Below are positions 1,864 to 9,334 of a stretch of 64,000 bases of DNA, piece by piece (positions within the stretch are counted from its first letter, which is position 1; the number at the start of each line of letters is the position of its first letter). Source of the stretch: a virus; IMG/VR virus record IMGVR_UViG_3300037294_000399, positions 1-64,000 of that record; one strand, written 5' to 3'. The translations under genes and the position numbers were made by a program. Below the pieces are notes generated by a model that saw nothing but the letters and a program-made list of their open reading frames with translations, had not been told where the DNA came from and did no database searches.

Positions 1864-2243
1864 TGACACATGAAGAAATGAATTTTTATTTAGCCAGTAT
1901 TGGTGGTTTAAATAGAACATATCGAGGAGACAAAGGTCCAATACTAGACTCTAAAGCTTTTGGTGTTGGTGAAGGGTGGTTACATTTAATTAAAGATATG
2001 GTTGAAGAACTAATCGCTTTAGGTTGGGATAAACGTTTGTTACAATCAAAAGAAAAGTTTGGTGGTTTAAGGTTCTACATCGAAACCTATCCAGAAGGTG
2101 GTCAAGATGTAATTATCAAATATGGAAAAATGTCATACGAAACATGTGAAGAATGTGGTGAGAAAGGTGGTTCTAAAAAAATTAAAGGTTGGATATACAC
2201 ACTATGTGAATATCATGAAAAAGAAAAATATGAAAACGATTAA
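1863..2243 (+). CDS. Conserved phage protein (KEKFGGLRFY motif, C-terminal zinc finger)
   Basis: QSKEKFGGLRFY and CEECG...LCEYH motifs. Confidence 0.75.
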   Translation: MTHEEMNFYLASIGGLNRTYRGDKGPILDSKAFGVGEGWLHLIKDMVEELIALGWDKRLLQSKEKFGGLRFYIETYPEGGQDVIIKYGKMSYETCEECGEKGGSKKIKGWIYTLCEYHEKEKYEND

Positions 2244-2664
2244 CGCACAAGGAATCATAGTAAGTTATGATTTAGAAGCTTTAGCAAATGAAGTTAACAA
2301 TATTCAATATGATAGACAAAATTATGTTGATAACCATAGAACATCTGGTGATGGTGTTTCTCTTCATGAAGGTTCACCAATAGAAGAAGAATTCAATGAG
2401 TTAAGAACTCAATTTGCTAATGATATTCTTGGTTTAGAACCTAGATTGGAAAAATTAATAGAAGATAATTTATTCCTAACTAAAAAAGGTGTCTTGGCTA
2501 AAAACAGACGTAGACCAATCTTAACAGGTGGTAGACAGTTTTATGTAAACGTTATCGATGAATACGACCACGATTTACAATTCGACAAACCTTACCTTAA
2601 ATTGGATAGAATTGGTGACAAGAAAGGTAAACTAATTATTCACGAAATGCAAACAAATTATTAA
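2230..2664 (+). CDS. Hypothetical protein
   Basis: ORF track; ATG 2230 overlaps upstream gene end. Confidence 0.65.
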   Translation: MKTINAQGIIVSYDLEALANEVNNIQYDRQNYVDNHRTSGDGVSLHEGSPIEEEFNELRTQFANDILGLEPRLEKLIEDNLFLTKKGVLAKNRRRPILTGGRQFYVNVIDEYDHDLQFDKPYLKLDRIGDKKGKLIIHEMQTNY

Positions 2665-3290
2665 ATATGTTTCCAAGTTCGATATGTAACTATTTTAAAA
2701 ATACACGCATCTTGAACTTGGAATTTTATTGCCAAATTTTTTTGTGATGTTCCATTAACAAAATATAAATCTCGAATCATTAATACTTGTTGTTCGGTTA
2801 ATTTGGCTTTAGAATTTTTTTCACCTTTTCTTTTTTCACTCATTTTTGCTTTTGCTTTTTCAGATGCTTTTTTACCTAAATTAATATTTTTTAGTTTTAA
2901 TTTTACAGTATCAGTATGTGTCTTGCCAAACATAGGATTATTTTCACCAGAAACATCGTGATGGTTTTTACTAATATTATCTTTATGTTCCTTAGTAAAA
3001 ACAATACCTTTATTACTACAACCTAAACAACCGTCACCACCTTTTGTTATGTTATAACCTATCTTTTTATTTCTAGCATCTAATTTACTTATCCAAAATA
3101 TTTCTTTTTCATTCATATCTTTTTTATCTACACAATTTTCTAAAATTTCTTTTTTAAAATTTTCTTTACCGTATTTTTTTATAGCGTTATTTAAAGCTAA
3201 ACCAGAGCCTAAATATTTAGGGTTATTTTTCGAATCTTGACCAACATAAATTTTATTATTTATTAGATTTGTTGTTTTATAAATTATCAT
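2661..3290 (-). CDS. GIY-YIG homing endonuclease with NUMOD3 repeats
   Basis: IIYKTTNLINNKIYVG, GYNITKGGDG, NPMFGKTH. Confidence 0.9.
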   Translation of the reverse strand: MIIYKTTNLINNKIYVGQDSKNNPKYLGSGLALNNAIKKYGKENFKKEILENCVDKKDMNEKEIFWISKLDARNKKIGYNITKGGDGCLGCSNKGIVFTKEHKDNISKNHHDVSGENNPMFGKTHTDTVKLKLKNINLGKKASEKAKAKMSEKRKGEKNSKAKLTEQQVLMIRDLYFVNGTSQKNLAIKFQVQDACIFKIVTYRTWKHI

Positions 3291-3399
3291 TTTAAATTGT
3301 TTATGAACCTATTGAAGATGTTATTTAATAATAAATACATAAAAACTTGTGAAAGTTAAATATATTTTGTACCTTTGTATAAAATAAAATATATTTAAT

Positions 3400-3912
3400 A
3401 TGGAATACACTGATAAATTACTAAGAGATGCTCTATTTGTTGCTGAAAATGCACATAAAAATCAAAGATACGATGAAATTTTTCCGTATATGAAACACAT
3501 ACATGATGTAATTGATGTTTTAAAACGGTTTGATTTTAAGAGTAATAAAATGTTAATAGCTGCTGCCCTACACGATGCTATCGAAGATGATGGTATTTCT
3601 TACAATGACATCAACAGACACTTTAACACGGAAGTTGCCGAGATGGTTTATTGTGTTACTGATGAGTTAGGTCGTAACAGAAAAGAGAAAAAAATAAAAA
3701 CTCTTCCTAAAACAGCTGGTAACCCAGATGCTATTATTCTTAAATTGGCTGACCGTATTGCTAACATTGAACATGGTGGTAAAATTGATATGTATGCTAA
3801 AGAGTATCAAGAGTTTAAGGGTGCTTTATATTTGAACACACCAGCACATGGTAGACCAATGTGGGAACATTTAGATAAATTATTACAAATTAATTTGGTA
3901 GAGTCAAATTAA
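3400..3912 (+). CDS. HD-domain small alarmone hydrolase (RelA/SpoT hydrolase, Mesh1-like)
   Basis: AHKNQR...PYMKH, AALHDAIED, KLADRIAN. Confidence 0.85.
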   Translation: MEYTDKLLRDALFVAENAHKNQRYDEIFPYMKHIHDVIDVLKRFDFKSNKMLIAAALHDAIEDDGISYNDINRHFNTEVAEMVYCVTDELGRNRKEKKIKTLPKTAGNPDAIILKLADRIANIEHGGKIDMYAKEYQEFKGALYLNTPAHGRPMWEHLDKLLQINLVESN

Positions 3913-3946
3913 TTTATTACCTTTGTATCAACAAAACAAAAAACAT

Positions 3947-4681
3947 ATGAAAATTAAAGACATTTTTGACGAGATTGCTGCTGAAGGTGGTACTAACCAA
4001 AAAATGGTTATTTTAGCTAAATACGCTGACAACGAATTGTTAAAACGAGTATTATATTTGGCAAACTCTAAGAGAGTTAAATTTTACATTAAACGTGTTC
4101 CAGAATACGTTGATGTTAGGAATAAAATCTCCTTGGATGACGCATTAGATGAATTATCAGTGATTAGTAATAGAACACTTACAGGTAGTGCTGCCGTGGC
4201 TCACTTAGTTGATTTATTGTCAATAACTGAACCAGAAGATGCTTATATCTTAGAACGTATCATCGAAAAAGATTGTAAAATAGGTATGGGTACCTCAAAT
4301 ATGAACAAAGTGTTCAAAAACCTTATTGAAGATACACCTTATATGGGTGCCGTATCGTTTGATGAGAAGAAAGCACGCAAGTTGTTTGAGAAAGGTGCCA
4401 AAGGTTATTCACAAGTTAAGATGGATGGTCGTTACTGCAACGCAACAATAGTTAACGGTGAAGTTTATTTGGAAAGCCGCCAAGGTGAACCAACAATCAT
4501 CACTGGTGCAAAGTTGATTGACGATTTAGCTAATTTGAATGAAGTGGTTCTTAATGGTGAATTGACCATGGATGGTTCAAAAGATATTGTATTAAAAATT
4601 GGTGAAATTATAAATATTGATGGGGTTGAGTGTAATGGAGATGAAATATTAGAAAAATTTAATAAAACCATTAAAAATTAA
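3947..4681 (+). CDS. ATP-dependent DNA ligase, N-terminal fragment
   Basis: Motif I KMDGRY, SRQG, motif III LNGEL, then a 34 aa non-ligase tail. Confidence 0.85.
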   Translation: MKIKDIFDEIAAEGGTNQKMVILAKYADNELLKRVLYLANSKRVKFYIKRVPEYVDVRNKISLDDALDELSVISNRTLTGSAAVAHLVDLLSITEPEDAYILERIIEKDCKIGMGTSNMNKVFKNLIEDTPYMGAVSFDEKKARKLFEKGAKGYSQVKMDGRYCNATIVNGEVYLESRQGEPTIITGAKLIDDLANLNEVVLNGELTMDGSKDIVLKIGEIINIDGVECNGDEILEKFNKTIKN

Positions 4682-4734
4682 ACAAGTAATCCGAACAATT
4701 AGATTTTATTAGATATTTATAATAAAAGAATATT

Positions 4735-5736
4735 ATGTATGTCTGTTATTTAATAAAATATAGTGGTGATAAACTACCAAGATTCTATATCGGGTCAACC
4801 TCATTAGATAAAATAAAAAATGGTTATCGTGGTTCAGTAGTTTCAAAAAAATATGGTAAAATTTTTAAAAATGAATTAAAAACAAACCCTCTTTTATTTG
4901 AATATGAGATATTAAGTGAACATACAACCAGAGAAGAAGCTTTAGAAGCTGAATTAATTCAGCAAAAGAAGAACAATGTTGTTAAATCAAAAGATTTTAT
5001 TAATGAATCATACGCATCTGTTAATGGAATGTTTGGTAGAGATGTTTCGGGTGAAGTGAATCCTATGTTTGGTAAAAAACATAGTGAAAAAACTAAGAAA
5101 ATACTCAGCGAAAAACGAGGTAACTTACTAAGATATAGTTTAACTGACGAACATAAATTAATTATTAGTAAAACACATAAAGGTAAAATTGTTAGTGAAG
5201 AAACAAAAAGTAAAATAAGTAATAAAAAAAATGGTACCTTTACTGCTATTGATGAATCTAGAAATTATTTTAATATTGGTAAAAATGATGAGAGGTATTT
5301 AAACGGTGAATTATCTGGTATGACTGTTGGATTTGTTGTTGTTAAAGATATTAATGGTAATAAATTATTAGTTGGTGTTAATGATGAACGTTATTTAAGT
5401 GGTGAATTAGTTCATATTAATAAAGGTAAAGTTATGAGTGATGAAACTAAGGTTAAAATATCCGAATCAAGTAAAGGTAAAATAATAAGTGAAGGGTGTC
5501 GTAAAAAAATATCCGAAGCACATAAAGGTAAAATTAAAGGTCCGTTGAGTGAGGAAATTAAAATTAAAATATCAGAAGCTAATAAAGGTAGAGTTATGAG
5601 CGAAGAAACTAAACAAAAGTTAATTATTAGTAAAACGGGGATGAAATATATTGAACGAATTTGCCCATATTGTAAAAAAGTAGGTCGGGGTGGAAATATG
5701 TTTAGGTATCATTTTGATAATTGTAAATTAAGATAA
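4735..5736 (+). CDS. GIY-YIG (Seg-like) homing endonuclease with NUMOD3 repeats inside the ligase gene
   Basis: VCYLI...FYIGS, repeated HSEKTKKI/SEETKSKIS, C-terminal CPYC. Confidence 0.85.
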   Translation: MYVCYLIKYSGDKLPRFYIGSTSLDKIKNGYRGSVVSKKYGKIFKNELKTNPLLFEYEILSEHTTREEALEAELIQQKKNNVVKSKDFINESYASVNGMFGRDVSGEVNPMFGKKHSEKTKKILSEKRGNLLRYSLTDEHKLIISKTHKGKIVSEETKSKISNKKNGTFTAIDESRNYFNIGKNDERYLNGELSGMTVGFVVVKDINGNKLLVGVNDERYLSGELVHINKGKVMSDETKVKISESSKGKIISEGCRKKISEAHKGKIKGPLSEEIKIKISEANKGRVMSEETKQKLIISKTGMKYIERICPYCKKVGRGGNMFRYHFDNCKLR

Positions 5737-5743
5737 AAATATT

Positions 5744-6583
5744 ATGGTGGAGTTTAAAAAAATTAAAAGGGTTACGAAAAATGAAGATGGTAGTGTAACA
5801 TTGACAATGGATGGTGTACCTCGTTATGAGTCTAACGGTATCATAGCATCAATCATTGATATCTGCGGGAAACGTGAGTCTAGGACTAGTGAAGAAAATA
5901 TCAAAAAAGTCTTAACTTTTGAAGACAAGCATGGTAGTTTTGAGGATGCTTTGGTTAAAATACGTTACACTGTTTGGGATATGATTACTATTGATGAGTA
6001 CAATACTACTAAATCAACTACACCATACAATGTAAGACTTAAAAATCTTTCAGAAACGTTATCAACTATCCAAAACGATAATGTTATGGTGTCAATCATT
6101 GAAAATAGAGAGGTTAATACCTTTGAAGAAGCAATGGAGCACTTCAAAGAAATGCTAGGTCGTGGTGAAGAAGGTACTATCCTTAAAGCACAAACTGGTG
6201 AGTGGAAAGATGGTAAACCAACATGGCAAATCAAACTTAAGTTGGAATTGACATTAGATTTGATGATTACTGGTTTTAATTACGGCACTAAAGGTACTAA
6301 AAATGAAAACGTTGTTAGTTCGTTTAATGCTATGACATCATGTGGTTTATTGAAAACTAGACCACAAGGATTGAAAGAAGATTTAATGAAAGAAATTACA
6401 GAAAGACAAGATGAGTTGTTAGGTACAATCATCGAAGTTAAATGTTCTGGTCTTTCATTTGACAATACTGGTGCTTATTCGTTGTTATATCCAGCGTTTA
6501 AACATTTCAGAGACGATAAGGGTGTTGCCAACTCTTTGGAAGAATGTATTGACATTCAAAATGCGGCTTTAGGTTTATCTTAA
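5744..6583 (+). CDS. ATP-dependent DNA ligase, C-terminal fragment
   Basis: Motif IIIa YTVWD, IV EGTILK, V KLK, OB domain, VI YPAFKHFRDDK. Confidence 0.85.
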   Translation: MVEFKKIKRVTKNEDGSVTLTMDGVPRYESNGIIASIIDICGKRESRTSEENIKKVLTFEDKHGSFEDALVKIRYTVWDMITIDEYNTTKSTTPYNVRLKNLSETLSTIQNDNVMVSIIENREVNTFEEAMEHFKEMLGRGEEGTILKAQTGEWKDGKPTWQIKLKLELTLDLMITGFNYGTKGTKNENVVSSFNAMTSCGLLKTRPQGLKEDLMKEITERQDELLGTIIEVKCSGLSFDNTGAYSLLYPAFKHFRDDKGVANSLEECIDIQNAALGLS

Positions 6584-7154: not shown

Positions 7155-7904
7155 ATGGAAACAAAAACCTGTAATAAATGTAACGATGAAAAAGAAATCA
7201 TTCATTTTCATAAAAAAAGTAATAACCACGATGGTTATAATACAATCTGTATTGAATGTATAAGTAAACAAAAAAAAGAGTATTACTATAATAATAAATC
7301 TCTTATAAAAGAGAGACAAAAAGATTATTCAAAGCAATATTACGTGAATAATAAGGTTGAGATAAAGGAACATCGGAATAAGTATTATTCCGAGAATAAA
7401 GATGTGTTTGCTAATTATTATATAGAAAATAGAGACAAGATTCTCGAAGACCAAAAAAAATATAGGGAAGAAAATAAAGAATCAATTAAAAAAACGAAAC
7501 AAGAGTATCTTAAGAATAATCCAGAAAAGATTGCTGATTATCGAAAGAAATACTACGATGAAAATAAAGATGCTATCTTAGCCAACAATAGAGCGTGGAA
7601 TAAGAAAAATGCTCACATTGTTGCGTGGAGAAGCGTTCTAAAAAGCCATTTAAGACGAATAGGGAAGAAAAAAGAAGGTCACACAATAGACCTACTTGGT
7701 TATTCGGCACTCGAATTGAAAGAACACATTGAAGCATTATTTGTTGACGGTATGTATTGGGATAATCATGGGGTATGGGAAATAGACCATGTAATGCCAG
7801 TAACTAGTTTTGATTCAGAAACATTACCAAATGTTGTAAATGCGTTATCTAATTTACAACCGTTATGGCGAGCAGATAACAGGAGCAAATATAATAACTA
7901 TTAA
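7155..7904 (+). CDS. HNH-family homing endonuclease
   Basis: N-terminal CxxC...CxxC, K/Y-rich helical repeats, WEIDHVMP...NLQPLW...N. Confidence 0.85.
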   Translation: METKTCNKCNDEKEIIHFHKKSNNHDGYNTICIECISKQKKEYYYNNKSLIKERQKDYSKQYYVNNKVEIKEHRNKYYSENKDVFANYYIENRDKILEDQKKYREENKESIKKTKQEYLKNNPEKIADYRKKYYDENKDAILANNRAWNKKNAHIVAWRSVLKSHLRRIGKKKEGHTIDLLGYSALELKEHIEALFVDGMYWDNHGVWEIDHVMPVTSFDSETLPNVVNALSNLQPLWRADNRSKYNNY

Positions 7905-7916
7905 AAATATACAATT

Positions 7917-8288
7917 ATGAATACAAACAAACGTATGGTTAAATTCCCGTCTATTGAACAATTTAGAACAGTTGTTTCTAACATCAATAGAGATTTTAAC
8001 TTTGTTGGTTTAGATGAAAATGGGGACGCTATTTATGACCCTAGTTTAAAAAAACCAACACTTACATTCAAAGGAACTGTGAAATTACACGGAACCAATG
8101 CTGGCGTGTCTTATAATGAGGTTGATGGTCTTTGGGCACAATCTCGTGAAAATATTATCACACCAGCAGCATCAAAATTAGTAGAAATTGAGTTTGAAGA
8201 TGGCTCAAAACAATTATTTGATGAAAACGCAATTATTAATGGTAAAGTAATTAATGATTTTAAAATAGGTGAGACTATTGTTTTATAG
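7917..8288 (+). CDS. RNA ligase (Rnl2 family), N-terminal fragment
   Basis: FPSIEQF, motif I KLHGTN, QSR, followed by a non-ligase tail. Confidence 0.8.
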   Translation: MNTNKRMVKFPSIEQFRTVVSNINRDFNFVGLDENGDAIYDPSLKKPTLTFKGTVKLHGTNAGVSYNEVDGLWAQSRENIITPAASKLVEIEFEDGSKQLFDENAIINGKVINDFKIGETIVL

Positions 8289-8497
8289 CATACCAATTTT
8301 TATATTTGTAAAAATCTTTATTGGTTAATCTAGTAATAATTCGTTTATTGGTAATGTTTTCATAAAGTTTGGTATAACATCCATATATGAATGGCAAATA
8401 GAGGAAGGGACTATATTTGAAGAAGATTATGTCAAAAACGTAGATGAATACGTATTCACTTTAGATGAATGGTTTGAAAAAAATAAAAAACATAAAA

Positions 8498-9334
8498 ATG
8501 GAAAAGAAAATAAAAAATATTAGAGAAATTAAAACATCTGACAACGCTGGTTTTGCTTTCTTTGTTGAAGCAAACAAAGAAACATTTATTGATTTGATGA
8601 ACCAAGTAAAAACTGAAACTGGTTTGGATTTAGTAACAAACACTATTAGCATTTATGGTGAGTGGTGTGGTGGAAACATCCAAAAGGGTGTTGGTATCAC
8701 CAATTTAGAAAAATCTTTCTTTATTTTTGGTGTTAAGGTAACACCACATACTGAAAATAAAGAAGAATTAACAGAAAACCCAGCGTATTGGGTTGATTAT
8801 AGTTACTTGGAAGCAAGTGATAAAAAAATATATAACATCGATAATTTCAAAACCTTTACTATCGATATCGATTTCAATATGCCACAATTGGTTCAAAACC
8901 AATTGTCTGAAATGACAATCGAGGTTGAAAATGAATGTCCAGTTGCCAAATCTTTTGGTTTCTCTGGTATTGGTGAAGGTATTGTTTGGTCATGTGGCTT
9001 TAAAGGTGTTGTTAATAGGTTCAAAGTAAAGGGTGAAAAACACTCTTCTAGTAAGGTAAAAACACTTGCCGCTGTTGATGTTGAAAAATTGGAGTCTATA
9101 CAAAAATTTGTTGACTATGCTGTAACTAAAAGTCGTTTTAACCAAGCACTTGAAAATGTTTTCCCAAATAATGAACCAATCGACACCAAAAAATTAGGTG
9201 ATGTTATCAGATGGGTGGTTAACGATGTTATCAAAGAAGAAATGGATACTATGGTTAAGAATAAACTTGAACCAAAAGAAATTAACAAATACATTTCTGT
9301 TAGCGTTAGAGATATGTTTTTTAAATTGGTTTAA
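8498..9334 (+). CDS. RNA ligase (Rnl2 family), C-terminal fragment
   Basis: DNAGFA, motif III IYGEW, IIIa FFIF, IV GEGIVW, V FKVKG. Confidence 0.8.
   Translation: MEKKIKNIREIKTSDNAGFAFFVEANKETFIDLMNQVKTETGLDLVTNTISIYGEWCGGNIQKGVGITNLEKSFFIFGVKVTPHTENKEELTENPAYWVDYSYLEASDKKIYNIDNFKTFTIDIDFNMPQLVQNQLSEMTIEVENECPVAKSFGFSGIGEGIVWSCGFKGVVNRFKVKGEKHSSSKVKTLAAVDVEKLESIQKFVDYAVTKSRFNQALENVFPNNEPIDTKKLGDVIRWVVNDVIKEEMDTMVKNKLEPKEINKYISVSVRDMFFKLV

Follow-up and report, generated by a model that had tools for sequence, protein, structure and literature searches.

The locus examined here raises the question of how an RNA ligase gene that is divided in two by inserted DNA persists, and what the short peptides at the broken ends of its two products do. 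Introns and inteins are the textbook ways for a homing endonuclease to occupy a gene without destroying it. To our knowledge, a third way, in which the separate chains are re-joined by peptides that belong to the element, has one biochemically studied case, Aeh1 NrdA. The window, that is, the whole stretch of DNA analyzed, covers the initial 64 kb of an IMG/VR virus contig of 96 kb (31% GC), and the contig is a distant relative of the Cellulophaga phages.

As an earlier note on this DNA had proposed, an RNA ligase is encoded by two ORFs with appendages, at positions 7917–8288 (123 aa) and 8498–9334. Comparison by tblastn with phage records and 80 IMG/VR relatives demonstrated that homology to intact ligases ends with ...ITP (8165) and restarts with DNAGF (8540). 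The N fragment aligned to positions 3–68 and the C fragment to positions 65–330 of the RNA ligase family PHROG 548 (341 positions), and the two halves jointly covered the profile. A profile built from 48 intact relatives had T4 Rnl2 (PDB ID: 2HVQ) as its best match, with an E-value of 4.9e-9, and an AlphaFold model of the ligase of the closest intact relative, L004 (pLDDT 89.6), had T4 Rnl2 (PDB ID: 2HVR) as its best PDB neighbor (E-value 4e-12). The ligase was assigned to the Rnl2 type by this profile match, by motif I KLHGTN (KxHGxN) in the N fragment, and by the two-domain fold. T4 Rnl2 resembles it in motif I and in the two-domain layout, but is a single chain rather than the product of two ORFs and shares only ~15% identity with the ligase family of the window. 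The break maps, in the L004 model, to a coil of eight residues (79–86) that separates a short strand from the helix of residues 87–93, and profile alignment placed its T4 Rnl2 counterpart in the stretch between motif Ia and the next helix. On this modeling, the cassette was inserted into the coil that connects motif I/Ia to the helix preceding motif III. No second RNA ligase was found in the 96-kb contig, which CheckV estimated to be 27% complete. The features of the locus are listed in Table 1.

Table 1. Parts of the divided RNA ligase gene and of the inserted cassette, in window coordinates
Feature	Position	Strand	Comparison with relatives
RNA ligase N-terminal core, 83 aa, with nucleotidyl-transferase motif I KLHGTN	7917–8165	+	81–89% identity to the N-terminal part of intact relatives
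Junction residues AAS, 37-aa acidic tail, and TAG stop, cassette-borne	8166–8288	+	Absent in ~77 intact relatives; 75–92% identity in L006, L007, and L166
GIY-YIG endonuclease remnant, last ~33 codons	8275 to ~8374	-	Aligns with the 3′ terminus of the L006 endonuclease gene (276 aa; 2779–3609)
86-aa passenger ORF remnant, C-terminal half	8365–8490	+	86% identity to residues 44–85 of the L006 ORF 3693–3953
Start codon and basic leader, 14 aa, cassette-borne	8498–8539	+	Identical in L006/L007; one conservative change in L166; absent from intact ligases
RNA ligase C-terminal core, 264 aa, motifs III–V and helical C-domain	8540–9334	+	77–87% identity to relatives; PHROG 548; Pfam RNA_ligase

Comparison with the relatives identified the origin of the split. 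The gene was uninterrupted in ~77 of the 80 IMG/VR relatives, in which the junction reads ITP-EK-DNAGF. In relatives L006, L007, and L166, the tail and leader seen in the window flank an intact GIY-YIG homing endonuclease gene on the reverse strand. The tails of L006 and L007 were 90–92% identical to that of the window and their leaders were identical to the window leader; their insert of 1.3 kb contains two genes, encoding a 276-aa GIY-YIG-type homing endonuclease (opposite strand; PHROG 314, E-value 1.8e-15) and an 86-aa ORF. L166 carries a more diverged copy (tail, 75% identity; endonuclease, 89%) without the 86-aa ORF and with one Arg-to-Lys change in the leader. Directly upstream of the leader ATG, L166 contains the promoter-like sequence TTTG-N20-TATATTTG (reverse complement 3367–3415), and the same element (TTTG-N20-TAnnTTTG) precedes the 86-aa ORF in L006 (3648–3700), so that in both cassettes it sits between the endonuclease and the leader. 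We take this element to fit the Bacteroidetes −33/−7 promoter consensus TTTG...TAnnTTTG. The 86-aa ORF of L006 seems to have entered precisely at the ATGGAAAAG start common to both cassettes. In other phages this ORF is an ordinary small gene; its homologues there precede unrelated genes, and it was rejected as a guide to the donor context of the leader. The simplest cassette, that of L166, thus comprises a small recoded portion of the exon upstream, followed by the 37-aa acidic tail and its stop; the endonuclease gene, which runs on the other strand; the Bacteroidetes-type promoter-like element; and a start codon with the basic leader of 12–14 aa fused to the downstream ligase half.

The window carries a deletion derivative of this cassette. 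DNA alignment showed that the window matches both ends of the L006 insert, with ~955 bp missing in the middle and the deletion junction at ~8365–8375. The 209-nt gap between the two ORFs holds only debris and no endonuclease gene, in agreement with the earlier note; we could identify the debris as the 3′ end of the endonuclease gene (minus strand) and the C-terminal half of the 86-aa ORF. The deletion took out the endonuclease, the promoter, and half of the passenger ORF, and spared the tail, the leader, and both ligase halves. The window has both chain-end signals, the TAG stop (8286) and the ATG (8498), and an additional in-frame ATG upstream of the leader start, at 8465, has arisen through a 7-nt deletion. 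Because the promoter-like element of the cassette is deleted, expression of the downstream ligase half in the window depends on read-through. Since the endonuclease is intact in L006/L007 and L166 and lost through the ~955-bp deletion in the window, the split has outlived the invading endonuclease, as had been suggested from the window sequence. We regard this anatomy, a mobile cassette with its own tail and leader and a deletion derivative of it, as established. The proposal that crossing between two copies of catc would restore the ligase junction fared differently: the tetranucleotide is present at 8170 and 8535, but the intact junction is one residue shorter than the one so restored, and a 4-bp repeat in DNA of 31% GC provides no evidence of a crossover.

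The distribution of the cassette indicated repeated mobility. Nucleotide identity between the window and L006 was 93–100% in the cassette, compared with 77–82% in the flanking exons. In a maximum-likelihood tree, the window ligase was sister to the intact ligase of L004 (support 100/100), and the L006/L007 ligases were nested among the intact ligases of L011, L012, and L034; the well-supported branches forced at least two changes of state between split and intact. The exons of L166 were 98.2% identical to the intact gene of L017. The 18 nt adjoining the insert contained four synonymous changes between L166 and L017, and the downstream exon was identical from its first base, as co-conversion would produce, or as would be seen if the element brought along a recoded flank resistant to cleavage. 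By homing, the cassette has therefore reached no fewer than three ligase lineages, each of them sister to an intact allele.

The tail (37–40 aa) and the leader (12–14 aa) have no counterpart in intact ligases. To characterize the tail, we compared its three cassette sequences. Between the window and L166 there were 10.5 synonymous and 8.5 non-synonymous differences (20.8 and 90.2 sites, respectively), giving a pS of 0.50 and a pN/pS of 0.19 (binomial P = 9e-4 against neutrality); between L006 and L166 there were 8.5 and 5.5 (20.5 and 90.5 sites), giving a pS of 0.415 and a pN/pS of 0.15 (P = 1.4e-3). These ratios were near those of the ligase exons (0.21–0.28) and of the endonuclease (0.14). 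The differences clustered at codon position 3 (11/19), residues 1–15 of the tail were invariant among the copies, and the other frames had higher ratios or stop codons, with the open antisense frame being broken by a stop in L006. The purifying selection on the tail points to a peptide that is used, and the appendages look functional rather than junk.

This result bears on the main rival to an active ligase, namely that the split killed the enzyme, that the gene is dispensable, and that tail and leader are passenger DNA of a selfish endonuclease whose conservation reflects recent spread. The far greater similarity of the cassette than of the exons between genomes is what recent homing predicts, the promoter of the cassette has been lost in the window, and the L166 ligase, broken twice as described below, could indicate that the gene is dispensable. 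Moreover, the 98% identity of the L166 exons to an intact allele shows that the insertions in L166 are recent, and the intactness of the exons is weak evidence of function. Against passenger DNA stands the low pN/pS of the tail at a pS of 0.4–0.5. In addition, both halves were open in every copy seen, the terminal branch of the window (0.083) was called no longer than that of its intact sister (0.068), and the ~955-bp deletion left the tail, the leader, and both halves in place. We consider the death of the ligase unlikely.

The tail has a net charge of −4 (pI 4.3) and the leader of +3 (pI 10), and the L166 sequences give the same charges; each value taken on its own is common, occurring in 15–18% of comparable segments, and the second cassette of L166, described below, lacks the pattern. 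AlphaFold2 predicted, with moderate confidence (pLDDT ~70–74), that the 15 invariant residues of the tail form a β-hairpin at residues 88–102 (strands 88–92 and 98–102). A derivation of tail and leader from diverged ligase copies was rejected; in a MAFFT alignment they fell on the N-terminus of the ligase and on motif IV, and their ligase-profile scores were at the level of shuffled sequences.

In protein searches, the tail was carried only by five RNA ligase N fragments, and no further loci with the tail were found in IMG/VR or GTDB genomes. The tail query retrieved only RNA ligase clusters from the ESM Atlas, at lead-level scores, and three metagenome matches, one of them to a tape-measure-like protein, were rejected as chance matches of 8 aa. 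No free-standing small ORF equal to leader plus tail was present among 5.8 billion proteins (22–70 aa). An exhaustive HMMER search of 1.8 billion representatives with the tail returned two weak matches, neither of them an intein, one being a "YeVeFEDG" repeat protein with Tudor-like Pfam matches. The profile of this repeat gave the first hairpin of the tail 20 bits, above 3000 shuffles, a score that follows selection of the best among 1.8 billion; the leader contributed nothing to it. We regard an SH3/Tudor-like nature of the hairpin as a weak lead.

The earlier note had described the appendages as resembling the β-strands of intein Hint domains, and a related explanation is that tail and leader are the remnant of a Hint domain that no longer splices and still docks the halves in the manner of an inactive split intein. 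The arrangement has the topology of a split intein, with a tail on the N-half, a leader on the C-half, and the endonuclease between them, as in the "fractured genes" (PMC2677866); the tail starts with a conserved Ser and is predicted to be β-rich; a mini-intein and Npu DnaE were among the fold matches of the N-fragment model; and the same idea was raised for Aeh1 by Crona et al. (PMC3045599). These fold matches, though, had E-values of 1.7–3.6 and probabilities of 0.08–0.14 and lay amid Tudor domains, antibodies, and ribosomal proteins, and Foldseek with the N-fragment model yielded nothing below an E-value of 0.8. No Hint or intein Pfam family was matched, even at E ≤ 10, by the tail, by the tail of the DNA ligase described below, or by either of the reconstructed peptides, and the likeness to Hint domains was thus not borne out. 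The tail contains neither His nor a TxxH block, the leader ends in ...KT instead of the terminal HN, and the Hint catalytic blocks B, F, and G are absent; a Ser precedes DNAGF and a Ser begins the tail. The two peptides total ~50 aa, compared with at least 125 aa in the smallest inteins, and the absence of inteins from the HMMER matches speaks in the same direction. A Hint origin is accordingly very unlikely in our judgment. An intein at the same site in a homologue was also considered and rejected; the intein in the RNA ligase of Pseudaeromonas phage KLEP7 is real but lies elsewhere, in motif III.

Fractured genes are split inteins with a free-standing endonuclease gene between their halves (Dassa et al., 2009, PMC2677866). 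They share with the present locus the gene order and the phage-like DNA, and DNA ligase and GIY-YIG endonucleases are among the cases. Their appendages, however, are true split inteins of ~100 and 40 aa with catalytic blocks, by which the chain is rejoined, whereas those described here comprise 37 and 14 aa and have neither splicing residues nor a match to a Hint profile.

Group I introns with endonuclease genes often interrupt phage genes. A single-chain ligase could accordingly be produced if the insert, which is located in a conserved coding stretch, were removed at the RNA level as a self-splicing intron or bypassed by the ribosome. The insert had no match in Rfam even at E ≤ 10, its folding z-score of −0.67 indicated no unusual fold, and its GC content was ~25%. 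In the intact cassettes the endonuclease is on the opposite strand, and the tail is selected as protein in the frame of the upstream exon. At 374–1330 nt, the insert is also far longer than the known 50-nt bypass. Splicing or bypass thus seems extremely unlikely.

A second split gene in the window allowed the appendages to be compared. A DNA ligase is encoded at 3923–4681 and 5744–6583, split after motif III by another cassette, with the halves in the same frame. This cassette encodes a 333-aa GIY-YIG/NUMOD3 endonuclease on the same strand, is flanked by a direct repeat of 14 of 15 bp encoding LTMDG, is 99% identical in relative L085, and is absent from ~60 other relatives. The two pairs of appendages had been proposed to represent one reusable module, which would be a small permuted protein of common origin. 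The shared motifs KKIK, EDGS, and KIGE are indeed present in the appendages of both ligases, and four exact 4-mers occur in the same order, compared with 0.2 expected in shuffles (P about 5e-4); this statistic, however, was picked after the matches had been seen, and it was the only unusual one. Smith–Waterman local alignment under five gap regimes gave P values of 0.1–0.55, that is, shuffle level, as did the HMM comparison, and tail–tail and leader–leader comparisons did not exceed shuffles. Both endonucleases are of the GIY-YIG type and distantly related (28% identity over 106 aa, E-value 5e-6), and in both pairs the tail is acidic and the leader basic; on the other hand, the endonuclease genes do not have the same orientation in the two cassettes, EDGS is part of the leader in one ligase and of the tail in the other, and the "YeVeFEDG" repeat profile that gave the RNA ligase tail 20 bits gave the DNA ligase module 0.4. 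The tail was, moreover, found on no free-standing small ORF and on no other gene, and had no homologues at other split sites in the collections searched. Finally, a third cassette, in L166, whose endonuclease is a close relative of that of the DNA ligase, has unrelated appendages. Neither the relationship between the two modules nor the reuse of the RNA ligase tail was thus upheld, and we consider a common origin distinctly improbable. The general idea of a non-splicing aid to reassembly is already published (Crona et al., 2011, PMC3045599).

The third cassette was observed in the same RNA ligase gene, which in L166 (IMGVR_UViG_3300006484_000013, reverse complement 2149–5538) is in three pieces. 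There, the downstream ligase half is itself split at motif IV (GIGEGIVW) by another GIY-YIG endonuclease, of 319 aa, whose cassette adds a 56-aa tail and an acidic leader of ~24–30 aa of its own. The catalytic domain of this endonuclease was ~60% identical to that of the DNA ligase endonuclease, and its tail and leader were unlike either other pair and did not show the charge pattern; a similarity between its leader and that of the DNA ligase was rejected (P = 0.49).

Other endonuclease genes were observed in the same region of the window. The gene immediately preceding the RNA ligase encodes a free-standing HNH/endonuclease VII-like protein (7155–7904, plus strand; PHROG 1035, E-value 5e-21) and is missing from this place in L004 and L006, representing a third endonuclease insertion within a 6-kb stretch. 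A further free-standing GIY-YIG/NUMOD3 endonuclease gene is located upstream of the ligase region (2661–3290, minus strand; Pfam NUMOD3, E-value 3e-9). In public records, homologues of the RNA ligase are annotated as two adjacent proteins in Ralstonia phage RsoM2USA (MG752970, 266701–267720) and in several Klebsiella and Escherichia phages (e.g., OP296941 and PQ133625, with annotations such as "hypothetical protein" twice or "RNA ligase 2" and "hypothetical protein"); such records may represent additional ligases that are split or frameshifted.

The closest precedent for the RNA ligase locus is nrdA-a/mobE/nrdA-b of phage Aeh1 (Friedrich et al., 2007; Crona et al., 2011, PMC3045599). In Aeh1, the insertion of mobE in nrdA created tails that are essential for activity and oppositely charged (Crona et al., 2011, PMC3045599). 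As in that system, a free-standing homing endonuclease resides, in the intact cassettes, within an enzyme gene whose two halves would here be independently translated, the peptides at the break have opposite charges, and neither RNA nor protein splicing is involved. The ligase gene is contiguous in close relatives and split exactly at the homing endonuclease gene, and the tail and leader, which are absent from all intact ligases and have no ligase-profile match, are inherited with the insertion. Judged by its DNA, the locus fits the Aeh1 nrdA class in every feature that can be seen at this level. It differs in the host enzyme (RNA ligase instead of ribonucleotide reductase), in the endonuclease (GIY-YIG on the opposite strand instead of HNH on the same strand), and in the polarity of the charges, the tail being acidic and the leader basic. 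In contrast to Aeh1, the cassette is also found here in several diverged genomes, which allowed the selection test, and in the window the endonuclease has been deleted and the split remains. A possible parallel pointed out by Crona et al. (PMC3045599) is provided by the T4 topoisomerase genes 39/60 with mobA, in which a phage enzyme is likewise divided at an endonuclease insertion and its products have tail-like extensions; T4 gene 60 also contains a 50-nt translational bypass, to which nothing at the RNA ligase locus is comparable.

We favor separate chains and tail-assisted assembly, in line with the findings on the cassette-derived tails of Aeh1 NrdA-a and NrdA-b. A mobile GIY-YIG homing-endonuclease cassette has invaded the Rnl2-type RNA ligase gene; each ligase half would be made as its own chain, and the chains would come together without a covalent bond to give a functional enzyme. 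Assembly or stability would require the tail, which would probably pair with the leader emerging beside it at the break, and the two peptides would constitute the element's own remedy for the damage that it causes. Joint action of the two chains as an active ligase, aided by the tail, is the reading that we prefer and hold to be reasonably probable.

An extension of this reading is that the homing-endonuclease cassettes of this phage group carry "antidote" peptides selected on the element, the acidic β-hairpin tail and the basic leader forming an autonomous heterodimerizing mini-domain that re-joins whatever enzyme is cut. This extension is speculative and, in our estimate, improbable. If it were true, such antidote peptides would let endonucleases colonize coding sequence without an intron or an intein, and tail and leader would provide a natural pair of very small tags for reassembling split proteins.

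Crona et al. (2011, PMC3045599) noted that tails on other fragmented genes are hard to find by similarity and predicted that more such cases exist. With tail-assisted assembly, the RNA ligase would be a second enzyme family for the route by cassette peptides. Nothing known is overturned by this locus. What it adds to Aeh1 are several diverged copies of the cassette, evolutionary evidence of selection on the tail, repeated homing, a stage in which the endonuclease has decayed and the split gene lives on, and a relative with a ligase in three pieces. The locus offers a ready system for testing the generality and modularity of such peptides.
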